Below the pieces are notes generated by a model. That model made no database searches, was not told the origin of the DNA, and saw only the letters and a program-made list of their open reading frames with translations. Shown one piece after another: positions 1 through 64,000 of a stretch of DNA of 64,000 nucleotides; the stretch's first letter is position 1; every line of letters starts with the position of its first letter. The stretch is from NCBI GenBank assembly GCA_900317285.1, contig ONGA01000011.1, positions 4,107 to 68,106 of the forward strand. Direction: 5' to 3'. The stretch comes from an uncultured Bacteroidales bacterium (lineage in GTDB: Bacteria > Bacteroidota > Bacteroidia > Bacteroidales > P3). A program made the position numbers and the translations under genes.

Positions 1-1699
1 TGATGACGGCGACATGGAGGCAGAGCAGGGGGGAGCTGAGCACGGGCATGAGGTTGGTGACGGGCGGGTTGCTGCCGCTCATCATGGCGACCAGAAGGCA
101 GAAGCCCATGGTGAGCAGGGCTATCGGCAATCGCATTCCCTGTGCAGACGAGGACGTCTGCGCACCCAGTCCGATGATGCCGATGGCGATGGCCATGAGG
201 TTCATGCTGTCGAATCCGCCCGCCATGGGGATGTGGCCGCCAGCTATCCAACGGAGGACGAAGATAAGCAGGAGGTAAGAGGTAAGAACTAAGAGGTAGG
301 AGGTAAGGGCTACTTTCAGCCAACGGGGCATGTTTTTCCCGCGACCCTGGCACCAGAGACTGTAGGCGAAGCAGAGGAGACCGAGGGTGAGGGTGAGCAT
401 CGCCAGCCAGCGGCCGGTGGTGAGGGCGTTGTAGAGTCGCTCGGCTTTGACTCTCGTAGGGGAGGGGAGCACATTGGAAGCGCGTTTCTCCTGGAAGAGT
501 TTTATCTTCTCGAAGACCTGTTCCAGGGCTGCATAGTCGCCTTTCACGACCAGCTCCTGGCAGTAGCTGAGGTGTTTGCGGATGAAGAGGTACTCGTCGT
601 CGGAGACGGACAACGGGAGGTCGTCGTTTTGGGCGTACCAGCCGAGGACGCCGGTGCTGTCGGATACGGGGAAGAGTTTCAGGCCGCGGCCGGAGAGGAG
701 CATCTCTACCAGCGCCTTGCTTTCTTTCTGCCGCTTGGGTTTCACCTGGTCGAGGAGGGGCGCCCAGTCGCCGTAGTTGAAGAGGAAGCCGCTGAGGACC
801 TGCTCGGAGGAGAGGCCTTGGTAGGTGGCTTTGCCGGTGAGCTTGGTGGTGAAATCCTTGGCGAAGGTCTGCAGGGGGCAGATGCGGCCTTTGTAAAGGG
901 TGTACATCTCACCCATCTTGGAAGCGGTCTCGCGGGGCAAGGTTTTTGGCGCTGCCTGCGCCGAATTGAAGATTGAAAGTTGAAAATTGAGAATCAATAA
1001 AAGTCCCAGCGGGACGATGGTTTTTAGCCGTGGGCGCGAGCCCACGGATGGGGTGTTGTGGTGGCTTGAGCCCTGTAAGGGCGGTACATCGGCAGCTGGT
1101 TTTGTGTCGCCCCTACGGGGCTTCTGCTGCAGGCATAGCCATCCCAGACCAAGGAGGAGGAGGGCATAGCCGGTGTAGGTGACGGGGATACCCCAGGGGT
1201 CGTGGCTGACGCTGAGGGTGGTGCTGCCCTGGTCGTCGTAGTCCTCCTGGTAGTAGCGGCGGCCGCCGTGGCGGAGGATGTGGTTCATGGAGATGTCGAA
1301 AGGCTCGCCGTTGGCAGTGACGTGACTGACGAAGTCCATCGGGGTGTGGGTGCCGGGATAGTAGAGCACCTCGAAGCGCTCGAGGGTGATGCCCTCCTTG
1401 GTCTCGCCGGGGGCCAGGGTGATGCTGTAGTGCTCGCCCGTCCAGGTGGTGAGGGCGCCGCCGAGCAATATAATCGGTATTGACGCATGTATCAGCAGCG
1501 AGGCAGGCCGATGCCATAGCCGACCCTGCACGATGGCGACGATGGCAGCCACGGCCACAAGTCCCAGCAGCACGGCGAACCACCATGAGCCGTAGAAGTG
1601 GTCGGCCACCCATTCCGCCCCGCGGTAACGCTCAAAAACGGTGCCCGCGGCCAAAACTATGACCGCAAGCACCATCAAAAAGATTCTTGCTTTCTTCAT
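1..1699 (-). CDS. ccsA: cytochrome c biogenesis protein (System II, ResB-like N-terminus plus CcsA-like membrane domain); 3' end lies beyond the window edge
   Basis: Not in the ORF track because there is no in-window stop. Manual minus-strand translation from ATG 1697-1699 gives MKKARIFLMVLAVIVLAAGTVFERYRGAEWVADHFYGSWWFAVLLGL..., open to position 1. Multiple TM segments; YKGRICPLQTFAKDF block; RWIAGGHIPMAGGFDSMNLMAIAIG near the edge. Starts 16 nt after a di-haem c-type cytochrome gene. Confidence 0.6.
   Translation of the reverse strand, partial: MKKARIFLMVLAVIVLAAGTVFERYRGAEWVADHFYGSWWFAVLLGLVAVAAIVAIVQGRLWHRPASLLIHASIPIILLGGALTTWTGEHYSITLAPGETKEGITLERFEVLYYPGTHTPMDFVSHVTANGEPFDISMNHILRHGGRRYYQEDYDDQGSTTLSVSHDPWGIPVTYTGYALLLLGLGWLCLQQKPRRGDTKPAADVPPLQGSSHHNTPSVGSRPRLKTIVPLGLLLILNFQLSIFNSAQAAPKTLPRETASKMGEMYTLYKGRICPLQTFAKDFTTKLTGKATYQGLSSEQVLSGFLFNYGDWAPLLDQVKPKRQKESKALVEMLLSGRGLKLFPVSDSTGVLGWYAQNDDLPLSVSDDEYLFIRKHLSYCQELVVKGDYAALEQVFEKIKLFQEKRASNVLPSPTRVKAERLYNALTTGRWLAMLTLTLGLLCFAYSLWCQGRGKNMPRWLKVALTSYLLVLTSYLLLIFVLRWIAGGHIPMAGGFDSMNLMAIAIGIIGLGAQTSSSAQGMRLPIALLTMGFCLLVAMMSGSNPPVTNLMPVLSSPLLCLHVAVI
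271..308. repeat. degenerate 7-bp tandem repeat (GGTAAGA-like), in frame inside ccsA
   Basis: ggaggtaagaggtaagaactaagaggtaggaggtaaggg encodes LTSYLLVLTSYLLL on the minus strand. Shares GTAAGAACTAAGA with 56907-56930. Confidence 0.8.
964..997. repeat. GAATTGA/TCAATTC heptamer-family repeat, in frame inside ccsA
   Basis: aattgaagattgaaagttgaaaattgagaatcaa encodes ILNFQLSIFNS on the minus strand. Same word family as 8488-8550, 14947-15034, 57121-57153 and 63819-63844. Confidence 0.8.
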
Positions 1700-1715
1700 T
1701 CTCCTTAACTACAAA

Positions 1716-3284
1716 TTAGATGGCATTGATGAATTTCACCACGGCGTCGCGGTCCTCCTTTGAGAGTTGGCGGAAACGCTCGACGGTCCAGCGGGCGTCG
1801 CTCTGGGCGGAGCCGTGCCACATGATGGCCTCGATGACGTTGCGGGCGCGGCAGTCGTGCAGGCGGTCGGCATGGCCGGAGCAGATGGGTGCCAGGCCGC
1901 GGCCCCACAGCGGGGTGGTGCGGCACCAGCCTGTGCGGATGTCGTTTTTCATGAAGAGGCGGTGCTGCACCATGTCGGTGTAGGGCCAGATTTTCTGGTA
2001 GGGGTAGCGAGGCAGGCGGGCGTCGCCGTCGCTAAAGAAACCGTTGGGGTCGGTGAAGTTGTCGGGACCCGTCTCCCAGCTGGGACGGTGGCAGGTGGCG
2101 CAGCCCGACTCGATGAAGAGGCGTTTGCCGCGCTGTACGGTAGCGTCGGTGATGTTGCGGGCGGCGGGGACGGCGAGACCACGGTGCCATATCATGAAGT
2201 TGACATAGTCCTCATCGCTCATCTCGACGGGCAGGTCGGTGGAGGTGAGGTAGTTGTAGATGTCCTGCTGCACGTTGCCGGTGCGGTTCCAATCAGGGAA
2301 GTACTGGTAGAACTGTGCCTGCACGTCGGGGTCCTGTGAGGCGGCGGTGGCGTAGATGGTGGGGTCGAGGCTGAGGTAGTGCTTGCGGCGGTCGCTGCGG
2401 GTGACGTTAGTGATGTTCCAGATGGCGTTGGCGCCGGCGGCATCCTGCAGGGGACCGCGGCTGAGGGCGTAGGTGAAGCGCTTGGGATGCGTGGTGTTGC
2501 CATAGAGCGAGGCCCAGTCGCCGCCGGCCCAGATGGCGGGGTTGAGGGTGGCGCCAGCCTGCTGCTCACGCAGATACTGCGCCTTGAGCGAGTCGTCGGG
2601 GATGGCGTCGAGGAGACCAGTGCCGTAGATGCCAATGGTGCTCTCGAGGCGGAACGCCAGTTGAGAGTAGGGGGTGGAGAGCGGGGCGTAGAATGCATCC
2701 TCGGGGATGTTGACCTCGGGATAGATGAGGTCGTAGGTCTCGCCGTCGGGGAATCGGTTGCCCCAGTCGTCGGTGTAGGGCAGCCATGCGATGGTGATCT
2801 TCTCCTCGTCGATGGAGGGCTTGAAGGGCGCCACGGCCTTGGTTTGCGGCATGCCGGCCACGGAGGATTCATAGGCATTGGTGGCGCTGTTGTAGACCAC
2901 CAGCAGGTAGCCGTTGCCCCAGTCGTCGGCACGGTAGCGTTCCATGCGTCGTCCGTGGCCGTAGCCTGGGTGACAGCTCTCGCAGCTGGAACGTACGTAG
3001 AGCGGCCCGAGGCCGTTGAAGGGAGGGTTGTTCTGCGTCACGGTGTGCTCGAAAAACATCTCGCCGTATTTGAAGGCGTTGACCATGCCGGCGTTGACCA
3101 CGGCGGGAGTGGGGTCCTCGTAGGCCGAGGCCGACTGGTTGAAGGTGGTTCCGAGCAGACCGCCGGCGTAGGTTTCCTCGCTGACGCCCTCGGGGGCTGG
3201 CGAGGACTCTTTCTCGTCGCGGTTGCAGGCGGCGAAGGTTAGCGCCAGTGCGGCTGCGGATAATAATAATGTTGACTTTTTCAT
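1716..3284 (-). CDS. di-haem cytochrome c peroxidase-like lipoprotein (DUF1111 / putative thiol oxidoreductase family)
   Basis: 522-aa ORF. Lipoprotein signal (LTFAAC). Two CxxCH haem motifs (CESCH, CATCH). Sits in an imelysin neighbourhood. Confidence 0.8.
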   Translation of the reverse strand: MKKSTLLLSAAALALTFAACNRDEKESSPAPEGVSEETYAGGLLGTTFNQSASAYEDPTPAVVNAGMVNAFKYGEMFFEHTVTQNNPPFNGLGPLYVRSSCESCHPGYGHGRRMERYRADDWGNGYLLVVYNSATNAYESSVAGMPQTKAVAPFKPSIDEEKITIAWLPYTDDWGNRFPDGETYDLIYPEVNIPEDAFYAPLSTPYSQLAFRLESTIGIYGTGLLDAIPDDSLKAQYLREQQAGATLNPAIWAGGDWASLYGNTTHPKRFTYALSRGPLQDAAGANAIWNITNVTRSDRRKHYLSLDPTIYATAASQDPDVQAQFYQYFPDWNRTGNVQQDIYNYLTSTDLPVEMSDEDYVNFMIWHRGLAVPAARNITDATVQRGKRLFIESGCATCHRPSWETGPDNFTDPNGFFSDGDARLPRYPYQKIWPYTDMVQHRLFMKNDIRTGWCRTTPLWGRGLAPICSGHADRLHDCRARNVIEAIMWHGSAQSDARWTVERFRQLSKEDRDAVVKFINAI

Positions 3285-3292
3285 CTTTTTTC

Positions 3293-3340
3293 GGTTTTAC
3301 GTTATTTCGTTATAACGTTATTACGATTTCTCGTTACAAC
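3293..3340. repeat. 8-bp word-stutter repeat (CGTTATAA-like) in the imelysin/DUF1111 spacer
   Basis: ggttttacgttatttcgttataacgttattacgatttctcgttacaac. Confidence 0.7.
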
Positions 3341-3343
3341 AGG

Positions 3344-4507
3344 TTAGTTTTCTCTGACGACCTCGCTGGCGCGCTCGAGCTTCTCGCTCAGGGTGGCGCA
3401 GGCCTGTGCGGCGACGCCGTTGCGCTCGTCGGTGCGGTTGTTGACGAAGGGACGCGGCATGGCGTCGATGGCGACAAGGGCAGCGTCAATGGCCTCGCGC
3501 ACCTCGGCGTCGACGGAGGCGTTAAGGTCTTTCACATAGCTGTGGAGTGAGCGGCTCTCGTCGCGCTGACCCTCGTTTCCGCCCATATAGGCATTGCGGA
3601 TACTGAGGATGTTGTCGTAGAAGTCTTCCACCGACTTCTGGCTGTAGGGGCTTTCGATGTAGTGGATGTCCTCGTCGGAGGTACCCTCGTAGGGGCGGCC
3701 GATCTTCTGGGTGCCCACTTCGTCGGCGATGTCCATGCAACCCTGGATGATTTCCAAAAGGGCGGCTTTGCTGGTGGGGTAGATGCTACCGGCTTTGCCT
3801 GCGTTCTTCATGTTCTCGCCGTAGCTGTAGTTGCCGCCACCCACGGTGTACTCCCACTCACACTCTTCCATTTTCTGGGTGTAGTGGGCGGGTACGTTGT
3901 CCTCGCCGGCCCAGCTGATGGCCAGGCGGTAGCAGCAGTTGCGCAGGTCGCCCGCCACGGCGACGGCATAGGTGAGCTGGCTCGCGGTAATGTCGGCGAT
4001 GTTCTTGGGTGAGCCGTTGGCGAAGAGCACATACTCCAGACCGTGGAAGCCCAGCAGGGTGGTTTCGAGGCCGTTGGCGACGATGTCGCCGTCCTCACCG
4101 CCCAGCTGTGCCAGCTGGTTGGCGTTGCCCATGAGTGCGTCAAAGCGGTCGGCGTCGAGGGGCCAACTGTCGATGTGGGGATCGATACCGAAGTTGGAGG
4201 CCGGGCCGAAGAGGAAGGCCTCGCTCTTCTCCCACTGCTCGCGAGCGGCGAGGAAGGTAGCGCAGACGGTGTTGAGGCCGCTTTGGGTGGGGTTGGCTTT
4301 CAGTGCCGCCAGCTGCTCAACCAGCTGCTCGGCATTGGCGGCTAATGCTTTGTAGGTAGGTACCACGGTGTGGTCCACAAACTGTTCGGCGATAGCGGCG
4401 GCTTTCTGGTCGGTCGTCGTCACGTCCATGTCATCGTCTTTGCTGCACGAGGCAAGCGTCAGTGTGGCAGCTAAAGCCACGGCTAAAGTTTTGAATAAAT
4501 GCTTCAT
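3344..4507 (-). CDS. imelysin-family lipoprotein (peptidase_M75 / IrpA-like, iron-associated)
   Basis: 387-aa ORF. Lipoprotein signal (LTLASC). HxxE motif in LLGFHGLEYVLF. Adjacent to the DUF1111 gene. Confidence 0.8.
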   Translation of the reverse strand: MKHLFKTLAVALAATLTLASCSKDDDMDVTTTDQKAAAIAEQFVDHTVVPTYKALAANAEQLVEQLAALKANPTQSGLNTVCATFLAAREQWEKSEAFLFGPASNFGIDPHIDSWPLDADRFDALMGNANQLAQLGGEDGDIVANGLETTLLGFHGLEYVLFANGSPKNIADITASQLTYAVAVAGDLRNCCYRLAISWAGEDNVPAHYTQKMEECEWEYTVGGGNYSYGENMKNAGKAGSIYPTSKAALLEIIQGCMDIADEVGTQKIGRPYEGTSDEDIHYIESPYSQKSVEDFYDNILSIRNAYMGGNEGQRDESRSLHSYVKDLNASVDAEVREAIDAALVAIDAMPRPFVNNRTDERNGVAAQACATLSEKLERASEVVREN

Positions 4508-4529
4508 ATTAGTATTATGTTTTTAATTA

Positions 4530-5828
4530 TCAATTTCCGTTTTTAAAGAACCCAGTCCAGGTGATGCCCAGGGCGAAGAAAGGCTCGTTATTGTATTGGC
4601 TGTCGAAGAGGCGGATGCCACCTTCGGCTTTGAGAGTTACCTCGGGGATGGGACTGTAGTTCAGTCCCCCCGACACTACCTGCCGCTCGCACCAGCCGAT
4701 GTCGGTCATTACGCCGCCGGGCACAAAACTGTCGTAGTGGTCATAGCGGCCGAAGATGAAGAGCTTCTGCTTCGTTTTGCTCCAAGCGAGGGCGTTGATA
4801 CCGGCCTCGATGGCGGCATCCCAAGCACTCTCGCCGACGGCGGTATGGGGGTAGGGGTTACCCGTCATCGTAGTCTGGTTCATGTTGTGTTGCGAGATGA
4901 GCACGGCATCGTTCAGGTGTCCGTAGTCGACGTTGCCGCGCACGATGAGCCAGTGGCTTTTGTAAGCGAAGTCGAAAGCGCCAATCAGTACAGTTCCTTT
5001 CACGTCGTGGTATTTCGACGTCTCGCCGTAGTTGTCGGTCTTGATATCGTTGTTGAAGCTGTTGCCGATGTATCCGCTGAGGCTGAGACGCAGGCCAGGC
5101 ACACCTGACCAGTCGACCCTCGCGGCGCAGGCCAGGCTGCTGGCGGGACGGAACTCATAGGGCGAGGCGCTGCCGTTATGAATCCAGCCTGCATTGTTGA
5201 AGAAATAGGCGTTCAGAGCGGGAAGTACCTGCGCCTCATAGCGCCAAGCACCGCTCTTACCCCAAACGGAAACGCCAGTCTCATGCCATGTGCAGGGCAT
5301 GATGGTGTTTTCGCCCTCGGGGCGGTAGACGCTGAAAAACTGGTTGGGTGTGTGGCTGTTGTTGGTCATTCCTACGGGCACGACGATATGTCCTGCACGG
5401 ATGTTTAAAGTTTTGCTGAAACTTTTCTGTACCCAGAACTGTTCCAGTGCCACTTCGCCGCCGCGTTCCACCTCCTGCTCGAACTCACCGGCCTCTTCGG
5501 CTTCCATCTCGGTCGCCACCTCGGTGCCGCCATGTTCGAACTCAATCTCGGTGCCGATGCTCCATCCGTGGCCGAAGTCGTAGCCCAGCATGATGACGGC
5601 ATGGGGGAGGTCCACGCGCCCATGATCTGCGGCATCTTTATAGTTGGCGGGATACATGTAGCGGTGCACGTCGTCGCTGTAGAAATGGCGGCTGTAGACA
5701 GCCTCTCCATAACCACCGATAGTCAGGCGGCTTTTGGTGCCTGTAGTATCGTTTTGTCCCGAAACCGGGGCTTGGAAAGCAAGTGCAGAAATCGCACAAA
5801 GAATTAGTACACTTTTTGTTAATCGCAT
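4530..5828 (-). CDS. outer-membrane beta-barrel porin-like protein, first gene of the imelysin operon
   Basis: ORF 4530..5882. Start chosen at MRLTKSVLILCAISALAFQ (ATG 5826-5828), because the upstream ATG lies beyond the -7 promoter box. Alternating beta-strand pattern; aromatic-rich C-terminus. Confidence 0.6.
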   Translation of the reverse strand: MRLTKSVLILCAISALAFQAPVSGQNDTTGTKSRLTIGGYGEAVYSRHFYSDDVHRYMYPANYKDAADHGRVDLPHAVIMLGYDFGHGWSIGTEIEFEHGGTEVATEMEAEEAGEFEQEVERGGEVALEQFWVQKSFSKTLNIRAGHIVVPVGMTNNSHTPNQFFSVYRPEGENTIMPCTWHETGVSVWGKSGAWRYEAQVLPALNAYFFNNAGWIHNGSASPYEFRPASSLACAARVDWSGVPGLRLSLSGYIGNSFNNDIKTDNYGETSKYHDVKGTVLIGAFDFAYKSHWLIVRGNVDYGHLNDAVLISQHNMNQTTMTGNPYPHTAVGESAWDAAIEAGINALAWSKTKQKLFIFGRYDHYDSFVPGGVMTDIGWCERQVVSGGLNYSPIPEVTLKAEGGIRLFDSQYNNEPFFALGITWTGFFKNGN

Positions 5829-5851
5829 AATGCAGTTGTTTTTGTTGGTTG

Positions 5852-5859
5852 CAAAGATA
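5852..5859 (-). promoter_or_regulatory. Bacteroidota -7 promoter box (TATCTTTG) for the porin/imelysin/DUF1111/ccsA operon
   Basis: Plus-strand caaagata inside tgcaaagatag, 24 nt upstream of ATG 5828. Confidence 0.5.
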
Positions 5860-5937
5860 GATTCATTCCCTTGTATGGGCAATCACCACAATTGGTGATT
5901 TTTTATGCTTTTGTCTCGATGGTTTACCAAATATATG

Positions 5938-5945
5938 TATTTTTG
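5938..5945 (+). promoter_or_regulatory. -7 promoter box (TATTTTTG)
   Basis: tgtatttttgcaac, 45 nt upstream of ATG 5990. Confidence 0.45.
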
Positions 5946-5989
5946 CAACTCGAACAAAAATAGCTGATTTAATATAAATAACTGAAAAA

Positions 5990-6277
5990 ATGAACTTTAC
6001 TGGAATTATTATAGGGGTGTCGTCCTTTCTGTGCATAGGCCTTTTCCATCCTGTCGTCATCAAGGCTGAATATTATTTCGGGACCCGTTGCTGGTGGGTG
6101 TTCCTGCTGGTGGCAGTGGTCTGCATCGCCGGGTCGCTGCTTGTGGCGTCGACTATTCCGTCGACCATTCTCGGCGTGGTGGCTTTCTCCAGCCTGTGGT
6201 CGATTCTCGAGCTGTTCAAGCAGCGTGAGAGGGTGGAGAAGGGGTGGTTCCCCAAGAATCCCAAGCTTAAGGATTGA
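5990..6277 (+). CDS. small polytopic membrane protein (DUF4491-like)
   Basis: 95-aa ORF with three hydrophobic segments. Family name is from memory only. Confidence 0.5.
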   Translation: MNFTGIIIGVSSFLCIGLFHPVVIKAEYYFGTRCWWVFLLVAVVCIAGSLLVASTIPSTILGVVAFSSLWSILELFKQRERVEKGWFPKNPKLKD

Positions 6278-6375
6278 TTTGATTTCCTCCGATGCGGAGG
6301 AGTAGAAAATGGACCGGGGGCGTGGTGCATTCATGCGCCACGCCCCCGGCATAGGGTTCGTTGTGGAAGGATGGT

Positions 6376-8433
6376 TTACCAGAGGACGACGCGGAGCTCG
6401 GGAGCGAGCCACATGCCGTCGCCTTCCTTGATGCCGAAGGCCTCGATGAATTCGGTGACCTGGGGCAGGGCGACGTTGACGCGGTTGCGGCCGAGGGAGT
6501 GGACATCCATCTGGGTGAGCTGCAGGGCAGCTGCGGGGCGGATGTTGGAGGCCCAGACGGCAGCGTAGGCGAGGAAGAAGCGCTGTTCGGGGGTGAAGCC
6601 GTCCATCTTGTCGGTGTTGACTTGATTGGCTTTCATGGCGTTCTGCATGGCGAGGTAGCTGACGTGGAGACCGCCGTTGTCGGCGATGTTCTCGCCGAGG
6701 GTGAGCTCGCCATTGCCATGGATGAGGCCAAGTTCGGGATCGTCGAGGGCGACGCATTTGTTGAAGGCGTCGATGAGGGTCTGCTTGTTGCGGTCGAAGT
6801 TGGCTGCATCCTCGGCGGTCCACCAGTCGTTGAGGTTACCGTCCTTGTCGTACTGGCGGCCCTGGTCGTCGAAGCCATGGGTGAGCTCGTGGCCGATGAC
6901 GACACCGATGGCACCGTAGTTGGCGGCCTCGTCGGCGTTGAGGTTGAAGAAGGGAGGCTGGAGGATGGCAGCGGGGAAGCAGATTTCGTTGGTGGTGGGG
7001 TTATAGTAGGCGTTGACGGTCTGGGGAGTCATGCCCCATTCGTCGCGGTCGACGGGTTTGTTGATTTTGCTGAGCATGTAGTCCATGTCGAACTCGTTGC
7101 TGCGGACGACGTTGGCGTAGTAGCTGTCGTTCTTGATTTCGAGTTTGCTGTAGTCGCGCCACTTGTTGGGGTAGCCAATCTTGATGAGGAGGGTGGAGAG
7201 CTTGTCGTGAGCGTTTTTCTTGGTGGCGGCGGTCATCCATTTGGCCATGTCGATGCGCTGGCCGAGGGCGGTGATGAGGTTCTGCACGAGGGTTTCCATG
7301 CGGGCTTTCGCTTCGGCGGGGAAGTAGCGTTCGACATAGAGCTGGCCGAGGGCCTCGCCCATGGCGCCGTCGACGACGGAGGTGACGCGTTTCCAGCGGG
7401 GACGGTTGACCTCGCGGCCACTGAGGAGACGGCCGTAGAAGTCGAAGTTGGCCTCGACGAAGTCGTCGCTGAGGTAGGAGGCGGCGGAGTTGATTTCGTG
7501 CCAGGCGAAGTAGGCCTTGAGGGTCTCGATGTCGGCATCTTTCATCACTTTGTTGACTTCGGCGAAGTATTTAGGCTGGGCGATGTTGAAGGTCTTCATG
7601 CCATCGAGGATGTTCATGGCGGTGAAGTAGCCCTTCCAGTCGATGTTGGGAGCGAACTTGGCAGCTTCCTCAACAGAGTAGCGGTTGAAGGTGGACTGCG
7701 GGTCGCGGTTTTCGAGCTGGGTGTTCTGGCTCTTGGCGATGCGGGTCTCGAAGGCCATCACCATCTGGGCGAGCTTGTCGGCGCTTTTGCCGGCGAGTTT
7801 GTCGTAGCCGCTCATGGCGAATTCCTTGGTCATGAGTTCGACGTAGCCCTTGCGGATGTTCTTGTTGTTGCCCTCGTCGAGGAGGTAGTAGTCGCGGTCG
7901 CCGAGACCGAGGCCGCTCTGGTAGGCCCAGGCGATGCACTGCTTGGCGTCGTCCTTGTCGGCTTCACCGAAGACACCGAAGAGGACGTGGTTGCCACGAC
8001 GGTGCATCTTGAGGAGCTCGCCCCAGATGTCGTCGCGGGTCTTGAGGGCTGCGATTTCCTCGAGGTAGGGGGTGAGGGGTGCCACACCGTCGGCCTGCAG
8101 CTTGGCACTGTCCATGCCGATGTTGTAGAGGGTGGCAATTTTGTCGGCGATGGAGCCCTTCTCGTTCTGCATCTTCGAGACAGAGTCGATGATGCCCTTG
8201 AGGTTTTCCTGTGCGTTCTCGTGGAGGACGTCGAAGGCGCCGTAGCGCGAATGCTCGCCGTCGAGGGGATTGTTCTTCATCCAGCCGCCGCAGGCGTACT
8301 GATAGAAGTCGTCCTCGAGGCGGACGGTGGTGTCGAGGTTGTCCAGATTGATGCCCGAGGTGAGCTGGGGCTTCTGCTGGCAACCGGTAGCGATAACTGC
8401 CATAGTAGCAATACTTAAGATGGTTTTCTTCAT
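6376..8433 (-). CDS. pepO: M13 family zinc metallopeptidase (PepO / endothelin-converting-enzyme-like lipoprotein)
   Basis: 685 aa. Lipoprotein signal (IATGC). HExxH in VIGHELTHGFD. GENIADNGG motif. Confidence 0.9.
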   Translation of the reverse strand: MKKTILSIATMAVIATGCQQKPQLTSGINLDNLDTTVRLEDDFYQYACGGWMKNNPLDGEHSRYGAFDVLHENAQENLKGIIDSVSKMQNEKGSIADKIATLYNIGMDSAKLQADGVAPLTPYLEEIAALKTRDDIWGELLKMHRRGNHVLFGVFGEADKDDAKQCIAWAYQSGLGLGDRDYYLLDEGNNKNIRKGYVELMTKEFAMSGYDKLAGKSADKLAQMVMAFETRIAKSQNTQLENRDPQSTFNRYSVEEAAKFAPNIDWKGYFTAMNILDGMKTFNIAQPKYFAEVNKVMKDADIETLKAYFAWHEINSAASYLSDDFVEANFDFYGRLLSGREVNRPRWKRVTSVVDGAMGEALGQLYVERYFPAEAKARMETLVQNLITALGQRIDMAKWMTAATKKNAHDKLSTLLIKIGYPNKWRDYSKLEIKNDSYYANVVRSNEFDMDYMLSKINKPVDRDEWGMTPQTVNAYYNPTTNEICFPAAILQPPFFNLNADEAANYGAIGVVIGHELTHGFDDQGRQYDKDGNLNDWWTAEDAANFDRNKQTLIDAFNKCVALDDPELGLIHGNGELTLGENIADNGGLHVSYLAMQNAMKANQVNTDKMDGFTPEQRFFLAYAAVWASNIRPAAALQLTQMDVHSLGRNRVNVALPQVTEFIEAFGIKEGDGMWLAPELRVVLW

Positions 8434-13764: not shown

Positions 13765-15678
13765 ATGCAAAATATTAGAAATATTGCAATTATAGCTCAC
13801 GTCGACCACGGAAAGACCACTCTGGTCGACCGCATGCTTCATCAGGCAAAGCTCTTCCGCGACAATCAGGAGACCGGCGAACTCATCCTCGACAACAACG
13901 ACCTCGAGCGCGAACGCGGCATCACCATCCTGTCGAAAAACGTCAGTGTCCGGTACAAGGGTTACAAAATCAATATCATCGACACTCCGGGTCACAGTGA
14001 CTTCGGCGGCGAGGTGGAGCGCGTGCTCAACATGGCCGACGGCGTCCTCCTCGTGGTCGACGCTTTTGAAGGCCCCATGCCGCAGACTCGCTTCGTCCTC
14101 CAGAAAGCCATCGAGCTGGGCCTCAAACCCATCGTGGTGGTCAACAAGGTCGACAAGCCCAACTGCGACCCCGAGCTGACGCAGGAGGCCGTCTTCGACC
14201 TCATGTTCAACCTCGGCGCCAACAACGACCAGCTCGAGTTCCCCACCGCCTACGGCTCCGCCAAGCAGGGCTGGATGGGTGAGGACTATAACACCCCCAC
14301 CGAGGACATCTCCTACCTCATGGACCTCATCATCGAGCACATTCCTGCTCCCAAGACCGACGAGGGTACCACCCAGATGATGATTTCCTCTCTCGACTAC
14401 AGTTCCTACCTCGGCCGTATCGCCGTGGGACGCCTCCATCGCGGCACCCTGCAGGCGGGTCAGAACGTCACCCTCGCCAAACGCGACGGTACTATGGTGA
14501 AGACTAAGATTAAGGAACTCTATGTCTTTGAGGGTCTTGGAAAAGAGAGAATAAAGACTCCTGTGGAGGCCGGTGAGATTTGCGCCGTGCTCATGGACCT
14601 CGACAAGAATGTCGCCTTCGAGATTGGCGACACCATCTGCGATATCGACAACCCCGAGGCTCTGCCCCCCATCAAGGTCGACGAGCCCACCATGTCCATG
14701 CTCTTCACCATCAACAACTCGCCCTTCTTCGGCAAGGAGGGCAAGTATGTCACCAGCCGCCACCTGCGCGACCGCCTCTTCGCCGAGCTGGAGAAGAACC
14801 TCGCTATGCGCATCGAGGAGACCGGCTCGCCCGATTCGCTGCTTGTCTACGGCCGCGGCATCATGCACCTCTCCGTCCTCATCGAGACCATGCGCCGCGA
14901 GGGCTATGAGCTGCAGGTGGGTCAGCCGAAGGTCATCATCCGCTACGGGAAAATTGAAAATGGAAAATTGAAAATTGAAAATTCGCTGCCGCACCCGGAT
15001 AATTCTCAATTCTCAACTCTCAATTCTCAATTAATCAAGTGCGAGCCTATCGAGCAACTCACCGTCCTGGTGCCCGAGGAGTTCAGCTCCAAAGTCATCG
15101 ATGTCGTCACCCGCCGCAAAGGCGAGGTGGGCACCATCGACACCAAGGGCGACCGTGTGCAGCTCGACTTCACCATCCCCTCGCGTGGCATCATCGGCTT
15201 GCGCAACACCCTTCTCACCGCCACCAACGGCGAGGCCATCATCGCCCACCGCTTCCTTGAGTTCCAGCCCTGGAAAGGCGACATGGACGACCACAAGTAT
15301 GGCGCCCTCATCGCCAAGGAGACCGGCGAGGCAACAGCCTACAGCATCAGCAAGCTGCAGGACCGCGGCCCCTTCTTCATCGAGCCGGGCGACCACGTCT
15401 ATGCCGGCGAAGTCATCGGCGAGAGCCTCCGTCCCGGCAACGACATCGTCATCAACGTCGTCACCGCCAAAAACCTCACCAACATGCGCACCAAGAGCGC
15501 CGACGAGAAGAGCACCTGCTCGCCCGCCATCAAGATGAGCCTCGAGGAGGCCATGGAGTACATCCGCGAGGATGAATACCTCGAGATCACCCCGCAACAC
15601 CTCCGCATCCGCAAGATCATCCTCGACGAAATCGAGCGCAAGCGCGCCCGCATCGCCGCCGGATACAAGGACGAGTAA
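13765..15678 (+). CDS. typA: translational GTPase TypA/BipA carrying a ~31-codon in-frame insertion
   Basis: 637 aa. [14 protein letters not shown]1 motif. Full-length BipA architecture. 30-35 aa longer than typical BipA. Confidence 0.95.
14947..15034. mobile_element. MITE/RPE-like palindromic heptamer element inserted in frame in typA
   Basis: Left arm (GAAAATT)n at 14948-14983, loop cgctgccgcacccggat, right arm (AATTCTC)n at 15001-15033. Encodes [29 protein letters not shown]. Confidence 0.7.
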
Positions 15679-22456: not shown

Positions 22457-22858
22457 TCAAAGTACCTCGATGAACACCTCCGGCAGGTAGACATTTTCCA
22501 ACGCGAGGGCTTCCTTGAAGAGGGGAGCGACCTCCTGTGGTGTATAGCCGGCGATGCCGCAGCCCACGGCGGTGACCAGGAACGTCAGCTCGGGGTGCTG
22601 CTTGGCGCAGGCGATGAAGTGTTTGACTGCCGCCTTCAGCGAGGCTTCGCCCTCCATGGTGGGAAGGGCGTAGGTGCGGCCCGTAAGTCCTTCGCCGACA
22701 CCCCATTCGGCACCGAACTGCTTGTGCGCAAACCACGCGGCACCGCCGCCGTGGGCACCCTGGATGTTGCTACCGAAGACAAAAATCTCGTTCTCGCCGA
22801 GTTCGGTGATGTTGTCCGACGCCACGCGGCGCCCACCAATAATCTGAGTGTTTTTCAT
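22457..22858 (-). CDS. conserved 133-aa protein with IFVFGSN...G.HGGGAA...YALPT motifs (resembles the family NCBI names A1S_2505 phage non-structural protein)
   Basis: Motif recognition from memory only. No signal peptide. Confidence 0.45.
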   Translation of the reverse strand: MKNTQIIGGRRVASDNITELGENEIFVFGSNIQGAHGGGAAWFAHKQFGAEWGVGEGLTGRTYALPTMEGEASLKAAVKHFIACAKQHPELTFLVTAVGCGIAGYTPQEVAPLFKEALALENVYLPEVFIEVL

Positions 22859-22894: not shown

Positions 22895-22900
22895 CGAAAT

Positions 22901-22932
22901 AATGTTTAATGTTTAAAGTTTAATGTTTAAGG
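22901..22932. repeat. GTTTAA word-stutter repeat
   Basis: aatgtttaatgtttaaagtttaatgtttaagg. Confidence 0.7.
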
Positions 22933-25418: not shown

Positions 25419-25814
25419 TTACATTTGTATAACGAATCAGGTAATTTACTATATTTACAATTGTAATTTTATACTCTTTTCGATACATTTACAATTGTAA
25501 TCAGTAGAATTCTGTAAAAATTGTTAAATATGCTGCTTTTGCCTTTGTTTAAAATATCTCATGATTAATAATCAGTATATTATGTATAACATTTAAAGTG
25601 ATTATTTAAGATTATGGGCACTTCGAGCGATGGTTTAATGCAGATTGAGTGATTACTATTAAATTCAAATATATTAATGTTTTATGCTACGTTAATTAAA
25701 GTAAAGGTTGTTATGGTTAAACTGGTTACAAATGTAATATTGTTAAATGGTGTTTTGTATGTCAAAAATTATGTGTACATTTGTAAAACCAAAAATTGGA
25801 TATTACAATTGTAA
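25419..25814. promoter_or_regulatory. array of 12-bp palindromes TTACAATTGTAA (3 perfect, 3 variant) upstream of the XRE-type regulator
   Basis: Perfect copies at 25455-25466, 25489-25500 and 25803-25814. Variants: TTACATTTGTAT 25419-25430, TTACAAATGTAA 25726-25737, GTACATTTGTAA 25775-25786. Confidence 0.6.
25776..25783 (+). promoter_or_regulatory. -7 promoter box (TACATTTG) overlapping a variant palindrome
   Basis: 36 nt upstream of ATG 25819. Confidence 0.4.
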
Positions 25815-25818
25815 GAAT

Positions 25819-26319
25819 ATGATAAACAGGATAAATCTTATTTTGCGGGCGAAAAATATCACCGCAAAACAGTTTGCAGAGGAGATCGGAATCCAGCCCT
25901 CCGGAATGTCGCATATTTTGAGTGGTCGAAACAACCCCAGTCTGGAGTTTGTCAGCAAGGTTATCCGCCGCTACCCCGAGATTGACGCCAACTGGCTGCT
26001 GCTGGGCAAGGGTGAGATGTATGGGCAATTGGGAAGCAGGAATCAGGAATCAGGAATGAGGGAGGAGGAATCCTTGTCCGAACCCACGCTCTTTTCGGCG
26101 CCTTTGCCGGCGCCTGCGCCCCTACCCGAGCCGGAGGAAGCTGTGGAGGAACAGGAAATCCGTGAGGAGTGTGATTTGCAGGATTTGCCGGATTGTGTGA
26201 GTGAGGAGCGCGGGCAGGAGAAAAAGGAACCTGCGCCTATCAAGCATGACGGGCGCAGGATGGTGAAGATTCTGATGTTCTACGACGACCACACTTTCGA
26301 GGAGTATCGTCCGCTTTAG
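25819..26319 (+). CDS. XRE-family helix-turn-helix regulator (Bacteroidota type with a conserved C-terminal domain)
   Basis: Start MINRINLILRAKNITAKQFAEEIGIQPSGMSHILSGRNNPSLEFV. C-terminal RRMVKILMFYDDHTFEEYRP. Confidence 0.75.
   Translation: MINRINLILRAKNITAKQFAEEIGIQPSGMSHILSGRNNPSLEFVSKVIRRYPEIDANWLLLGKGEMYGQLGSRNQESGMREEESLSEPTLFSAPLPAPAPLPEPEEAVEEQEIREECDLQDLPDCVSEERGQEKKEPAPIKHDGRRMVKILMFYDDHTFEEYRPL
26033..26072. repeat. 7-bp AGGAATC stutter repeat in frame inside the HTH gene
   Basis: gaagcaggaatcaggaatcaggaatgagggaggaggaatc encodes GSRNQESGMREEES. Confidence 0.75.
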
Positions 26320-28999: not shown

Positions 29000-29118
29000 T
29001 GTCTAATATTTTTTCTTGTTTTGTCGTTTCAATCAAAATTCGCGCAAGGAAACCGACGCTGAAGCGTAAGTGTCAACGGCCGGCTTTTGACGCGAAAGCG
29101 GCATGTTCAAAGTGCATG

Positions 29119-29286
29119 TCCGTGGCAGGTCTCCTGGCTTTCCGCATGCCGATACGCCTTCTCAGGAAGTTGGTTCCCAATGGCTTAGTGTATCGACCTT
29201 GGAGGCGGATTCACAGTTGCGCGACAGCTCGCGATTTCCACGCGATTCCCTCTTCGTCCCTCCCCCGTAGGGGATGGAACCACGGC
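29119..29286 (-). ncRNA. cobalamin (B12) riboswitch aptamer in the nrdDG leader
   Basis: The minus strand reads ...CCGTGGTTCC...AGGGAATCGCGTGGAAATCGCGAGCTGTCGCGCAACTGTGAATCC...AAGCCAGGAGACCTGCCACGG. It has a B12 box (AGCCAGGAGACCTGCC) and a closing P1 helix CCGTGG/CCACGG. Confidence 0.85.
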
Positions 29287-29340
29287 AATCTGTTCATGTC
29301 AAGGTACTTGTATCGGGTACACCGCTACTTAAACACGGTG

Positions 29341-38039: not shown

Positions 38040-38121
38040 CCGTAAACCATAAACCTTAAACTTTAAACCGTAAACCTTAAACCATAAACCTTAAACCTTA
38101 AACCATAAACCTTAAACCTTA
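38040..38121. repeat. array of ~10 degenerate 8-bp units AAACCNTA
   Basis: gtaaaccataaaccttaaactttaaaccgtaaaccttaaaccataaaccttaaaccttaaaccataaaccttaaacctta. Confidence 0.9.
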
Positions 38122-38135
38122 CCCCCAAAACTCCC

Positions 38136-38915
38136 ATGTCCTCCTTCTCCAAATGGCTCTTTGCGGGACTCGGCTGGGCCGTCGGCGGCCCCATCGGCGC
38201 CCTCCTCGGATACTATCTCGGCAAGTCCTTCGGCTCCTCTGGCAATTCAACGTTCGGTCCCTCTGGCAGCCACCATGGTCCCTACCGCAACACCGGCACC
38301 ACTGCCGACATCAATGCGGCGCTCATGGTCCTCATCGCTGCCGTCATGAAAGCCGACGGCGCCGTCAAGAAAAGCGAACTCGACTATGTGAAGCGCTTCC
38401 TCCTGCAGAACTACGGTGAGGAACGCGGCAAGCAGATGCTCAAAGTCCTGCAGCAGATGGTCCAGCAGGACATCCCTGTCGACCAGGTGTGCTTCCAAAT
38501 CAAGGTCAACACCGACTACAACACCCGCTACCACATGGTCGACTTCCTCTTCGGCATCAGCGGTGCCGACGGCGAATACCACCCCTCCGAGTTGCACACC
38601 CTTCGAGTCATTGCGCAGTATCTCGGCATCTCCCTAAGCGACTACACCTCCATCCATGAGCGCCATGTGGGGCATTCGGGCAATAGCGCCTTCTCGCAAT
38701 CACGCAATCAGAAAGACCCCTACAAGGTTCTCGGTATCGACAGCAATGCCTCCGACGAAGAGGTGAAGAAAGCCTACCGCAAGATGGCGATGAAATACCA
38801 TCCCGACCGCGTCGCCGACATGAGCGAGGAAATCCAGCGCAACGCCGCCGCGCAGATGAAAGAAATCAACCAGGCTTACGAGCAAATCAAAATCCTTCGC
38901 CCCAACCTGAAATAA
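38136..38915 (+). CDS. djlA: DjlA-like co-chaperone (TM + TerB-like domain + C-terminal J domain)
   Basis: 259 aa. J domain DPYKVLGIDSNASDEEVKKAYRKMAMKYHPDR. Confidence 0.8.
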   Translation: MSSFSKWLFAGLGWAVGGPIGALLGYYLGKSFGSSGNSTFGPSGSHHGPYRNTGTTADINAALMVLIAAVMKADGAVKKSELDYVKRFLLQNYGEERGKQMLKVLQQMVQQDIPVDQVCFQIKVNTDYNTRYHMVDFLFGISGADGEYHPSELHTLRVIAQYLGISLSDYTSIHERHVGHSGNSAFSQSRNQKDPYKVLGIDSNASDEEVKKAYRKMAMKYHPDRVADMSEEIQRNAAAQMKEINQAYEQIKILRPNLK

Positions 38916-40915: not shown

Positions 40916-40952
40916 CGAAAACTTTCACACATGCAAAAGAAAAAAAACAGAT

Positions 40953-41138
40953 AAGGTTTAAAGTTTACGGTTTACGGTTTAAGGGGCTACGCAGCCAATG
41001 AGCCTCCCCAGAGACAGACAAATCAATAATCCATAAACATTAATTCTTAACCCCTAACCCTTAAACTTTAAACCTTAAACCATAAACCTTAAACCATAAA
41101 CTTTAAACCTTAAACCATAAACCTTAAACCAAAAACCT
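40953..41138. mobile_element. composite palindromic element, copy 1: GGTTTAAGG-type arm, 42-bp core, long CCTTAAACC-type arm
   Basis: Left arm 40953-40984. Core ggggctacgcagccaatgagcctccccagagacagacaaatc. Right arm reaches ~41138. Confidence 0.65.
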
Positions 41139-41140
41139 TG

Positions 41141-41230: not shown

Positions 41231-41280
41231 TTTTTCCGGAATTCATCCCACATTCTCCTATCCCTCGTCCCAATCTCGGA

Positions 41281-41410
41281 TAAGGTTTAAGGTTTAAAGT
41301 TTAAGGTTTATGGGGGCTGCGCAGCCAACAGACCTCCCCGGTGACAGACAAATCCGTAAACCTTAAACCCTCAACCTTAAACCATAAACCTTAAACCTTA
41401 AACCATAAAC
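41281..41410. mobile_element. composite palindromic element, copy 2 (same orientation)
   Basis: Arm taaggtttaaggtttaaagtttaaggtttatgg. Core gggggctgcgcagccaacagacctccccggtgacagacaaatc contains the palindrome GGCTGCGCAGCC. Right arm is AAACC repeats. Confidence 0.65.
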
Positions 41411-56126: not shown

Positions 56127-56148
56127 TTTGTTTACGGGAAAAAAGTTG

Positions 56149-56156
56149 TATTTTTG
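56149..56156 (+). promoter_or_regulatory. -7 promoter box (TATTTTTG) for truA
   Basis: gttgtatttttgcatt, 11 nt upstream of ATG 56167. Confidence 0.5.
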
Positions 56157-56166
56157 CATTTGTTTT

Positions 56167-56907
56167 ATGGGACGATATTTTATACATTTGGCTTATAACG
56201 GAGGGTGTTATCACGGCTGGCAGACGCAGCCGGGGCTTCCGACGGTGCAGGAGACTTTGGAGGGTGCGTTGTCGACGCTGCTGCGCGAACCCATCGCCGT
56301 GGTGGGCTGCGGCCGCACGGACACGGGTGTGCACGCGAGCGATTTCTATGCGCACTTCGATGTTAATTCGGAATTAGGAATTAGGAATTCGGAATTGGTT
56401 TTTAAACTGAATTCGTTTCTTCCTCCGGATATTGTGATTTTTGACATTTTCCCCGTGGCGGAGAATGCGCACGCGCGTTTCGACGCGGTGGCGAGGACGT
56501 ACCAGTATCATGTGAGTGACCGACGGCTGCCGTTCCGCCAGGGGCAGTACTGCCGCATTTATTTCGTGCCCGACATCGGGCGGATGAACGAGGCGGCGCG
56601 GGTGCTGATGGAGTACGAGGATTTCACGTCGTTTGCGAAGCTTCACACGCAGGTGAAGACGAATATCTGCCACCTGAGCCGTTCGGAGTGGACGGAGGAG
56701 GAGGGCGGATGGGTGTTCACGATCCGCAGCAACCGCTTCCTGAGGAATATGGTGCGCAGTGTGACGGGCACGCTGCTTGAGGTGGGTCGCGGGAAGCTGG
56801 ACATCGCGGGTTTGCGCGAGATTGTGGAGAAGAAGGACCGCTGTGCGGCGGGTGTGAGTATGCCGGCCTGCGGCCTGTTCCTGACCAAGGTGGAATACCC
56901 CGGATGA
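56167..56907 (+). CDS. truA: tRNA pseudouridine(38-40) synthase TruA
   Basis: Start MGRYFIHLAYNGGCYHGWQTQPG. GCGRTDTGVHA catalytic Asp motif. Confidence 0.93.
   Translation: MGRYFIHLAYNGGCYHGWQTQPGLPTVQETLEGALSTLLREPIAVVGCGRTDTGVHASDFYAHFDVNSELGIRNSELVFKLNSFLPPDIVIFDIFPVAENAHARFDAVARTYQYHVSDRRLPFRQGQYCRIYFVPDIGRMNEAARVLMEYEDFTSFAKLHTQVKTNICHLSRSEWTEEEGGWVFTIRSNRFLRNMVRSVTGTLLEVGRGKLDIAGLREIVEKKDRCAAGVSMPACGLFLTKVEYPG
56365..56398. repeat. GGAATTN stutter in frame inside truA
   Basis: aattcggaattaggaattaggaattcggaattgg encodes NSELGIRNSEL. Confidence 0.75.
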
Positions 56908-56930
56908 ACTAAGAAGTAAGAACTAAGAAT
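56907..56930. repeat. 7-bp AAGAACT-type stutter filling the truA-prmA spacer
   Basis: aactaagaagtaagaactaagaat. Shares GTAAGAACTAAGA with 271-308. Confidence 0.75.
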
Positions 56931-56931
56931 T

Positions 56932-57795
56932 ATGAAGTATATTGAGGTTTGTTTTACGATGGATGATACCGGCCTGTTCCGCGATTTGCTGGTGGACACG
57001 TTGGGCAACGAGGGTCCCTACGAGAGTTTCGTGGAGACGAAGGAGGGACTGAAGGCTTATGTGCCTGTGGACCTTTTCGATGAGACCTGGCTCCGGCAGC
57101 AGATGCAAGAGCTCCGCGACCAATTCCCAATTTTCAATTCTCAATTCTCAATTCAGGAGATGCCGGACAAGAATTGGAACGAGGAGTGGGAGAAGGGCCA
57201 TCAGGCTGTGCTGGTGGAGTATGAGGGCGGCAGCGTATGGGTGCGTGCGCCGTTCCATCCGCATCGCGAGGATGTGGACTACGAGCTGATTATCGAGCCG
57301 AAAATGAGTTTCGGCACTGCGCATCACCCCACGACCTACATGATGCTGAGCTATGTGGCGGAGTTGGATATGCAGGGCAGGCGCGTGCTGGACATGGGCT
57401 GCGGCACCGCGGTGCTGGGCATTCTGGCGAAGATGCGCGGAGCGGAGTATGTGGAGGGTGTTGACATCGACGAGTGGGCCTTCAATAATGCGCGCGAGAA
57501 CGCGGCGTCGAACGGTGTGGAGATTGCGCTGAAGCTGGGTGACGCCTCTTCTTTGCAGGGCTGTTTTGACGTTGTGATTGCGAATATCAACCGCAATATC
57601 CTGCTGAACGATATGGGGCGTTATGCTGCCGTGCTCAACGCAGGCGGCACGCTGCTGCTGAGCGGTTTCTACGAGGCCGACGAGGCGGCGCTGGTGGCCC
57701 GTGCGGGTGAGCTGGGGATGACGTTGGAGGGAAGGAAGAGCCGCGACGGCTGGTCGGCGCTTTGTTTAAAACTCAATCAGAACAAAAAGAACTAA
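56932..57795 (+). CDS. prmA: ribosomal protein L11 methyltransferase
   Basis: 287 aa. DKNWNEEWEK. SAM motif VLDMGCGTAVLG. Confidence 0.92.
   Translation: MKYIEVCFTMDDTGLFRDLLVDTLGNEGPYESFVETKEGLKAYVPVDLFDETWLRQQMQELRDQFPIFNSQFSIQEMPDKNWNEEWEKGHQAVLVEYEGGSVWVRAPFHPHREDVDYELIIEPKMSFGTAHHPTTYMMLSYVAELDMQGRRVLDMGCGTAVLGILAKMRGAEYVEGVDIDEWAFNNARENAASNGVEIALKLGDASSLQGCFDVVIANINRNILLNDMGRYAAVLNAGGTLLLSGFYEADEAALVARAGELGMTLEGRKSRDGWSALCLKLNQNKKN
57121..57153. repeat. TCAATTC heptamer stutter in frame inside prmA
   Basis: caattcccaattttcaattctcaattctcaattc encodes QFPIFNSQFSIQ. Confidence 0.8.
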
Positions 57796-63772: not shown

Positions 63773-64000
63773 ATGAAAGCGTTTCCGAAAATATTGGTTT
63801 GCATAAGCATAATCCTCAGTTTTCAATTCTCAATTCTCAATTCTGCCACAGCGCAGATTACCCATGCCTCGCAGGGGCGCTTGGACGAGAATGCCACCGC
63901 CGCGCTCCAGAAAGCTGCCAAGAAACTCAGCAATGTCAAGTGCACGGTCTCCCTCACCGTCCTCGACTCGAAGAAGAAGGAGATTGCCCGTCAGAGTGCC
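63773..64000 (+). CDS. secreted protein, N-terminal fragment (possibly LolA-like); continues beyond the window
   Basis: Manual translation: MKAFPKILVCISIILSFQFSILNSATAQITHASQGRLDENATAALQKAAKKL.... Not in the track because there is no in-window stop. Confidence 0.5.
   Translation, partial: MKAFPKILVCISIILSFQFSILNSATAQITHASQGRLDENATAALQKAAKKLSNVKCTVSLTVLDSKKKEIARQSA
63819..63844. repeat. TCAATTC heptamer stutter forming part of a signal peptide
   Basis: gttttcaattctcaattctcaattct encodes SFQFSILNS. Confidence 0.8.

Follow-up and report, generated by a model that had tools for sequence, protein, structure and literature searches.

The whole 64-kb stretch of DNA analysed here, which we call the window, comes from an uncultured Bacteroidales bacterium and carries typA (bipA) on its plus strand, at 13765..15678. 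The ORF is intact and encodes 637 aa. Proteins identical or near-identical to the window's TypA match the Pfam families GTP_EFTU, GTP_EFTU_D2, EFG_C and BipA_C, and the window's protein matches E. coli BipA structures with E = 1e-177. In the initial annotation of this DNA, typA was described as 30-35 aa longer than typical, with the excess in a single block. The gene is long and the excess does fall in one block, but the difference from the closest relatives is 26 aa, and the block itself is a stretch of 31 aa (93 nt) that replaces the residues EIDGQ rather than being simply added. Its limits (TAC...ATC, 14944..15036, plus strand) were set by protein alignment and by comparing its DNA with one allele that lacks it (the empty allele, L001) and two that carry it (filled alleles, L002 and L003).

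Inside the block is the imperfect inverted repeat of heptamers, with a 17-nt loop, that had been read at 14947-15034, and both TRF and a repeat search recover it. The left arm (14949..14983, plus strand) has five GAAAATT units, of which the second is GAAAATG, and was delimited by TRF (5.0 copies), by the repeat search and by the delineation of the family described below. It is followed by the 17-nt loop CGCTGCCGCACCCGGAT (14984..15000, plus strand), which is translated as (S)LPHPD and is the family signature, conserved among metagenomic copies. The right arm (15001..15032, plus strand; 4.6 copies by TRF, also found in the repeat search) reads AATTCTC twice, then AACTCTC, AATTCTC and AATT, and is translated as 11 aa. 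The repeat search scores the arms as 32 nt long, 81% complementary and 17 nt apart.

The position of the block in the protein was obtained by sequence alignment to PDB chains, in place of an AlphaFold2 model that we discarded (pLDDT 41, pTM 0.31; the input homologues were all at least 92% identical). Residues 2-393 of the window's TypA align with residues 3-390 of the E. coli BipA chain and residues 425-631 with 396-603, and the block takes the place of E. coli residues 391-395. Domain III of E. coli BipA spans residues 303-385 and domain V residues 386-482, with the border at 385/386 (PMC4543647). By this alignment the insert sits where domains III and V join, immediately ahead of the KCEPIE strand, in agreement with the position first proposed for it, and filled TypA has a 31-residue excursion where a 5-residue connector stood. 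A different in-frame insertion of 10 aa (30 nt), GSTTEGESSAP, is found in domain II of the typA of close relatives (L168, 501-2366, protein P0053; P0036 shares it at the protein level). Rich in G+C and weakly palindromic, this insertion is not a heptamer element.

A polymorphic insertion

The block is an insertion and not an ancestral loop, as 114 of the 120 best TypA relatives are without it, including two whose proteins are 99% identical to the window's when the block is set aside. E. coli BipA likewise does without the segment. Most of the empty relatives are 611 aa long and read IIR-EIDGQ-KCEPIE at the site. Six protein clusters from separate contigs (P0001-P0006, one of them with 45 members) are 637 aa long and carry the block.

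The presence/absence polymorphism was seen in DNA at one filled/empty pair. The empty allele L001 is syntenic with the window, having the same groES/groEL and peroxidase neighbours, and reads ...ATCATCCGC GAGATTGACGGCCAG AAATGCGAG... at the site. Over 1821 flanking positions it shows 33 differences from the window, so that the typA DNA is 98.2% identical. In the filled alleles the ancestral 15 nt GAGATTGACGGCCAG, encoding EIDGQ, have been exchanged for 93 nt, along with a change of AAA to AAG. The net gain of 78 nt, or 26 aa (637 vs 611), keeps the reading frame and leaves the ORF intact, as had been supposed. Comparison of filled and empty DNA at this one pair reveals no target-site duplication. 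Judged from these alignments, the insertion is recent.

Two filled alleles were read as DNA from other samples, and one of them records a more complex history. L002 (typA at 180-2093, protein P0006) encodes a protein 94% identical to the window's with an identical insert, and its typA is a mosaic: the 5' ~900 nt are ~17% diverged from the window and the 3' ~1000 nt, including the insert, only ~2%, with a breakpoint near window position 14665. From this mosaic with an identical insert we conclude that the filled allele was imported by homologous recombination. The filled allele is thus polymorphic and has moved between lineages. Filled alleles differ from one another mainly by synonymous changes (28:9 and 120:36 codons), and typA with the block is still under purifying selection.

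These observations also bear on two other readings, in which the block is a product of chimeric assembly or filled typA is a pseudogene. This repeat does lead metagenome assemblies to join contigs. In L152 (about 410-472) and in protein P0259, the left part of a folK or miaB-like gene meets the right flank of a different locus precisely at the element, and both are probably chimeras of this kind, possibly real rearrangements. In typA, however, both junctions are identical in independent assemblies from different samples, which argues against an assembly error, and all filled alleles have an intact 637-aa ORF with the synonymous bias just described. We regard an artefact or dead gene as very improbable, the least probable of the explanations considered here.

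A dispersed family of heptamer-armed hairpins

Related hairpins occur at other loci. A degenerate one lies in frame in folK of a Bacteroidales MAG (locus L064), where the loop and right arm, CCACACCCTGATAGTTCTC, match CCGCACCCGGATAATTCTC of typA. The genome-wide census first suggested for arm-loop-arm copies was carried out as a metagenome scan with a loop/right arm pattern, CACCCNGATARTTCTCAATTCTC, and returned 44 loci. These represent 36 unique copies, with about 27 independent sets of flanks; nearly all of the non-window copies come from one metagenome project. The copies share the architecture (GARARTT)n, a loop (T/G)GCTGCCGCACCCGGAT of 16-17 nt, and (AATTCTC)n. Two of their common features lie outside the search pattern, yet recur among the copies: the left half-loop GCTGCCG and a left arm of 0-5 units of GAGAATT, GAAAATT or GAAAGTT. 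Copies range from 52 to 98 nt in length, the number of arm units differs between orthologous copies (L129 vs L163, and the FolK copies), and some have an extra small palindrome, CCCCTCTMAAGAGGGG, nested between left arm and loop.

The typA hairpin belongs to this family. It has the loop and at least two units of each arm, with five GARARTT and 4.6 AATTCTC units, and its loop departs from the consensus at the first base only. A profile built from 19 metagenomic copies, with the window excluded, matches window positions 14970-15014 with E = 1.4e-15 and 56.9 bits (nhmmer), and this loop-bearing copy is the sole significant match in the 64 kb. The same profile matches three copies in one Bacteroidales MAG, one at L064 and two at L067. 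The exact arm/loop junction of typA, TTCGCTGCC, was of no use as a scan query and gave no matches; the consensus has T or G where typA has C.

Could the hairpin have arisen in place, by slippage of heptamers and template switching for the second arm, with no incoming copy? The window is full of period-7 tandem arrays of various units, the ancestral site GAGATTGA resembles an arm unit, and arm lengths do vary between orthologous copies such as L129 and L163. However, slippage cannot account for a loop of 16-17 nt that is near-identical at about 27 unrelated loci, and we consider a local origin very improbable. The typA block is, with high probability, a copy of a non-autonomous dispersed palindromic repeat, with a stem of heptamer units and a conserved loop, that recently entered the gene in frame and is carried as a tolerated passenger.

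No partner for the element emerged from its surroundings or from database searches. Clustering of adjoining ORFs found no shared ORF or transposase beside independent copies, and no consistent direct repeat was seen in the flanks of the other copies, where a duplication of AATT would hide inside the arms. The loop motif is absent from IMG/VR. At the protein level, a search with a 42-aa consensus peptide returned 16 short hypothetical proteins, and a search of 1.84 billion representatives with the 31-aa insert returned three matches, among them the MiaB-like P0259, which contains the element; both searches have low power.

In-frame copies and stop codons

Long open frames contain 15 of the 36 copies. 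Their Pfam-verified hosts fall into eight gene families: TypA in the window, HPPK/FolK, TatD, an alpha-L-rhamnosidase (between the 6-hairpin domain and the C-terminal domain), a sulfatase-family protein, an alpha-2-macroglobulin (just after the A2M domain), a MiaB-like enzyme (between UPF0004 and Radical_SAM) and an RlmI-like methyltransferase (between the PUA and methyltransferase domains). The number of in-frame loci rises to as many as 10 among the roughly 27 when L144 and L166, ORFs with no Pfam match, are counted. Genic copies are mostly found at domain linkers. In one orientation the element is translated as ...ELRIEN(L/S)-[10 aa]-(I/T)LNSQ(F/L)..., and in the other as another peptide.

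The two arms differ in how readily they can be translated. A GARAATT array has a TGA across every unit junction and, with a period of 7, each frame meets a TGA once per 21 nt. AATTCTC arrays have no stop in any frame, as no trinucleotide of the unit is a stop codon. Stops block all six frames in nine full-length intergenic copies; genic copies are open through a short or altered left arm. In typA, a T to G substitution at 14962, in the sole variant unit of the left arm, turns the in-frame TGA expected at a perfect unit junction into GGA (Gly; 14962..14964, plus strand), as read directly from the sequence, and the left array stops one codon short of the next TGA. The same change of TGA to GGA yields ENGEL (also ENGKL) in most other genic copies, and its recurrence suggests that a frame-compatible unit variant circulates in the family.

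RNA structure and possible regulatory roles

Folded as RNA, the typA element is far more stable on the minus strand (-35.2 kcal/mol, z = -5.2, equalled by 0 of 200 shuffles) than on the plus, or mRNA, strand (-16.5 kcal/mol, z = -1.2), because the differences between the arms give A.C pairs on the plus strand and G.U pairs on the minus strand. The hairpin has no Rfam family, with only weak generic miRNA-hairpin matches far under threshold, and a terminator scan found no intrinsic terminator-like site at the element on either strand; the stem is A+T-rich. We also considered that the element might be selected across the family as a minus-strand RNA, and rejected this, since the strand asymmetry is seen in 11 of 22 copies and is not a family property.

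An adaptive or regulatory insertion would take one of several forms: the peptide might alter TypA on the ribosome, 7-nt slippage might act as a phase-variation switch, or the minus-strand hairpin might serve as an antisense RNA or DNA signal. In keeping with such roles, recombination has carried the filled allele into a diverged background, filled typA remains under purifying selection, the gain or loss of a single 7-nt unit shifts the frame, the minus strand folds well, and the mRNA strand is the weaker-folding strand in several genic copies. Against a switch, arm lengths are equal in all six filled variants and the longest perfect run of units in the typA arms is three. Against an RNA signal stand the lack of a terminator-like tail and the absence of a family-wide strand asymmetry. 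Further, unrelated genes and intergenic DNA harbor the same element, as would more readily be expected of a passenger than of a function specific to typA. An adaptive role is therefore unlikely in our estimation, if somewhat less so than a local origin, and we favor the tolerated passenger.

Three sigma-70-like promoter matches fall within 14954-15030, where 0.2 are expected, though this consensus may not be the host's. Promoters of Bacteroidales follow a consensus other than the sigma-70-like one, and the matches are probably irrelevant here. A+T-rich inserts could nonetheless create internal start sites.

Origin and comparison with known elements

We propose that a copy of the repeat inserted at the domain III/V junction of typA, displacing 15 nt, in a strain ancestral to this cluster. 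The allele would have survived through a combination of circumstances: a net change that is a multiple of three (+78 nt), a right arm without stops, and a left-arm TGA that now reads GGA. The inserted peptide, if expressed, is most probably tolerated rather than useful, a near-neutral passenger at a flexible connector, and the filled allele has later moved between lineages by homologous recombination. Arm length presumably changes through slippage of 7-nt units. The gain or loss of a unit shifts the frame because 7 = 1 mod 3, and such changes could also restore a reading frame. The case for mobility is made by the dispersal of the family together with one filled/empty polymorphism. The replacement of 15 nt and the missing duplication do not fit the footprint of classic transposition by simple cut-and-paste, and the element may move in some other way.

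Of known elements, those that most resemble this family are the Rickettsia palindromic elements (RPEs). Two publications that summarise Ogata et al. 2000 and 2002 describe RPEs as short dispersed palindromes with no transposase of their own (PMC10969869, PMC2996958). A large fraction of RPE copies are in frame within unrelated housekeeping genes, typically where the protein has a surface or linker segment, and encode a conserved peptide. Like RPEs, the typA family is palindromic, dispersed and in frame in unrelated genes, with no transposase seen. It differs in its host (gut and rumen Bacteroidales rather than an obligate intracellular alphaproteobacterium), in length (at most 98 nt, compared to 100-150 nt for RPEs) and in arms made of tandem 7-nt repeats of variable number. 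We regard the typA block as an RPE-like, non-autonomous coding palindrome, a counterpart of RPEs by analogy and not a relative or member, set apart by its host and by its unit structure; similarity in sequence is not expected. In-frame palindromes in assorted genes of Wolbachia and Methanocaldococcus jannaschii are attributed to Ogata 2005 and Suyama 2005 in PMC2996958. They represent the same phenomenon in unrelated hosts. To our knowledge, heptamer-repeat arms have not been reported for these coding palindromes.

The initial annotation had offered a MITE as an alternative to an RPE-style insertion. The RPE-like part of that suggestion holds, in the form of in-frame dispersal; a MITE in the strict sense is unproven. 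The family is MITE-like in being small, multi-copy (about 27 loci) and non-autonomous with inverted-repeat ends, but it is without the target-site duplication, and no matching IS or transposase partner was found among the ORFs next to its copies. The Bacteroidota MITEs in one review are those of Porphyromonas, where BrickBuilt elements are reported to be strictly intergenic (PMC10969869); BrickBuilt shares with the typA family an internal tandem repeat. REP and BIME elements are dispersed hairpins without coding capacity, 20-40 nt long, extragenic, mobilised by RAYT and tagged with GTAG or CGTC (PMC3733652). The typA element, in contrast, is 84-93 nt long and genic, with no GTAG or CGTC tag at either end. 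Tandem heptamer arrays are a further point of comparison, namely the STRR of cyanobacteria, the long simple sequence repeats of Mrazek 2007, and the TAACTGA arrays of Beggiatoaceae, Cyanobacteria and Bacteroidetes (PMC4679880). These resemble what we observe in their 7-nt units, their patchy spread across phyla, the stops in one orientation that limit gene overlap, and arrays placed just upstream of start codons. However, they are described as direct and mostly intergenic, whereas the typA family consists of opposite-sense arrays around a conserved loop, dispersed and often genic.

Searches of PMC and bioRxiv for heptamer palindromes, RPE-like elements or these sequences found no description from Bacteroidota, in line with the initial annotation, which was aware of none for this phylum. 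A 2024 review treats the Rickettsia case as unusual and only speculates on its occurrence elsewhere. Selfish palindromes in frame, until now treated as a curiosity of Rickettsia, Wolbachia and one archaeon, are extended here to the free-living and abundant Bacteroidales of the gut and rumen, where they have a different build, with arms of repeat units, and where they affect at least seven gene families besides that of a translational GTPase. With its naturally occurring filled and empty alleles, this is a tractable system for studying how a peptide is tolerated or recruited, how an element moves with no visible transposase, and whether 7-nt slippage has an effect on expression. In practical terms, such repeats yield spurious length variants, gene-call artefacts and chimeras in metagenome assemblies.

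Heptamer arrays beyond the family

Period-7 arrays are common in the window, and not only in the hairpin. TRF reports 17 of them (as rows) in all, and GAAAATTGAAAATT, allowing up to two mismatches, occurs 18 times against 0.32 expected, a count reached in none of 100 shuffles. By our reading, at least seven arrays lie in coding sequence, including the two typA arms, two in a ResB-like gene, one each in prmA, truA and a gene for an HTH protein, and probably one in a signal peptide. The ResB-like cytochrome c biogenesis ORF (2-1708, minus strand), which runs off the window start, has in-frame arrays at 272-307 and 964-994 that translate as LTSYLLVLTSYLL and LILNFQLSIF. Beside the second array, the same coding sequence matches the Acido-Lenti-1 RNA motif at gathering level (1002-1047, minus strand; 40.4 bits, threshold 37), and this stretch may be another small palindromic insert; the motif is not generally linked to heptamer arrays. 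In truA (56128-56907, plus strand), the product of which matches only the second PseudoU_synth_1 domain in Pfam, the array AATTCGG AATTAGG AATTAGG AATTCGG AATT at 56365-56396 is translated as NSELGIRNSEL. An HTH-domain ORF (25747-26319, plus strand) has a GGAATCA-type array at 26032-26072, translated as GSRNQESGMREEES just after the HTH domain, and an AATTCTC array at 63811-63844 (MKAFPKILVCISIILSFQFSILNSATAQ...) apparently falls within the signal peptide encoded by an ORF that the end of the window cuts off.

Not all of these arrays are young. The solo AATTCTC-type array in prmA (56932-57795, plus strand), at 57121-57154 and translated as QFPIFNSQFSIQ, was examined as a possible recent insertion, and this was rejected: the array is conserved in relatives down to 80% identity and is thus an old, fixed feature. 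Two relatives read SFPV-PLKYVVEE in its place. Between genes, two hairpins at 40951-41140 and 41280-41410 have (AAGGTTT)n/(AAACCTT)n arms and similar loops of ~45 nt, and point to heptamer-armed hairpins as a general design in this genome.

Similar arms are found far beyond it. Arrays of (GARAATT)3 occur in at least 120 species genomes of many phyla and in at least 120 viral contigs, and none of the 120 genome-scan loci listed has DNA similarity to the window. Among the matches listed, facing pairs of arrays run GARAATT, loop, AATTYTC in 32 of 35 instances from genomes and in 21 of 22 from viral contigs, and the loops are mutually unrelated. Counting all such (GARAATT)n - loop - (AATTYTC)n arrangements with other loops, they span at least eight phyla as well as phage contigs, and in-frame arrays are found in real genes, including those for an AcrB-family transporter, a GT4 glycosyltransferase and GcvT, among others. 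A Tidjanibacter MAG (L007, 225-324 and 2494-2602) provides a second loop family on such arms, in two hairpins with GAAAATT/GAAAATG arms and a different conserved loop common to both, which consists of two small stem-loops rich in G+C. Two viral contigs are also rich in heptamers: the phage-like L205 has six near-identical heptamer-armed hairpins with loops of 7-21 nt in 8 kb (101-7865), and L243/L170 has at least nine direct GARAATT arrays on one strand, ~1-1.6 kb apart.

A broader picture may be drawn, tentatively, and we would sooner expect it to need revision than to stand as it is. Gut and rumen Bacteroidales might carry undescribed coding-competent palindromes with stems of 7-nt repeats, in which the gain and loss of units samples all frames, eases settling in frame and could make genes switchable, with a hint of a shared way of making or moving such hairpins.

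Other arrays in the window stand close to start codons. A direct (TAAACCT)11 array at 38043-38121 ends 15 nt before the ATG at 38136, a GAACTAA array (56906-56929) lies directly upstream of the prmA start, and a TAATGTT array (22900-22930) directly upstream of the start of a minus-strand gene ending at 22858. The latter two resemble the TAACTGA arrays of other bacteria. The window also contains a cobalamin riboswitch at 29107-29299 on the minus strand (100.7 bits).
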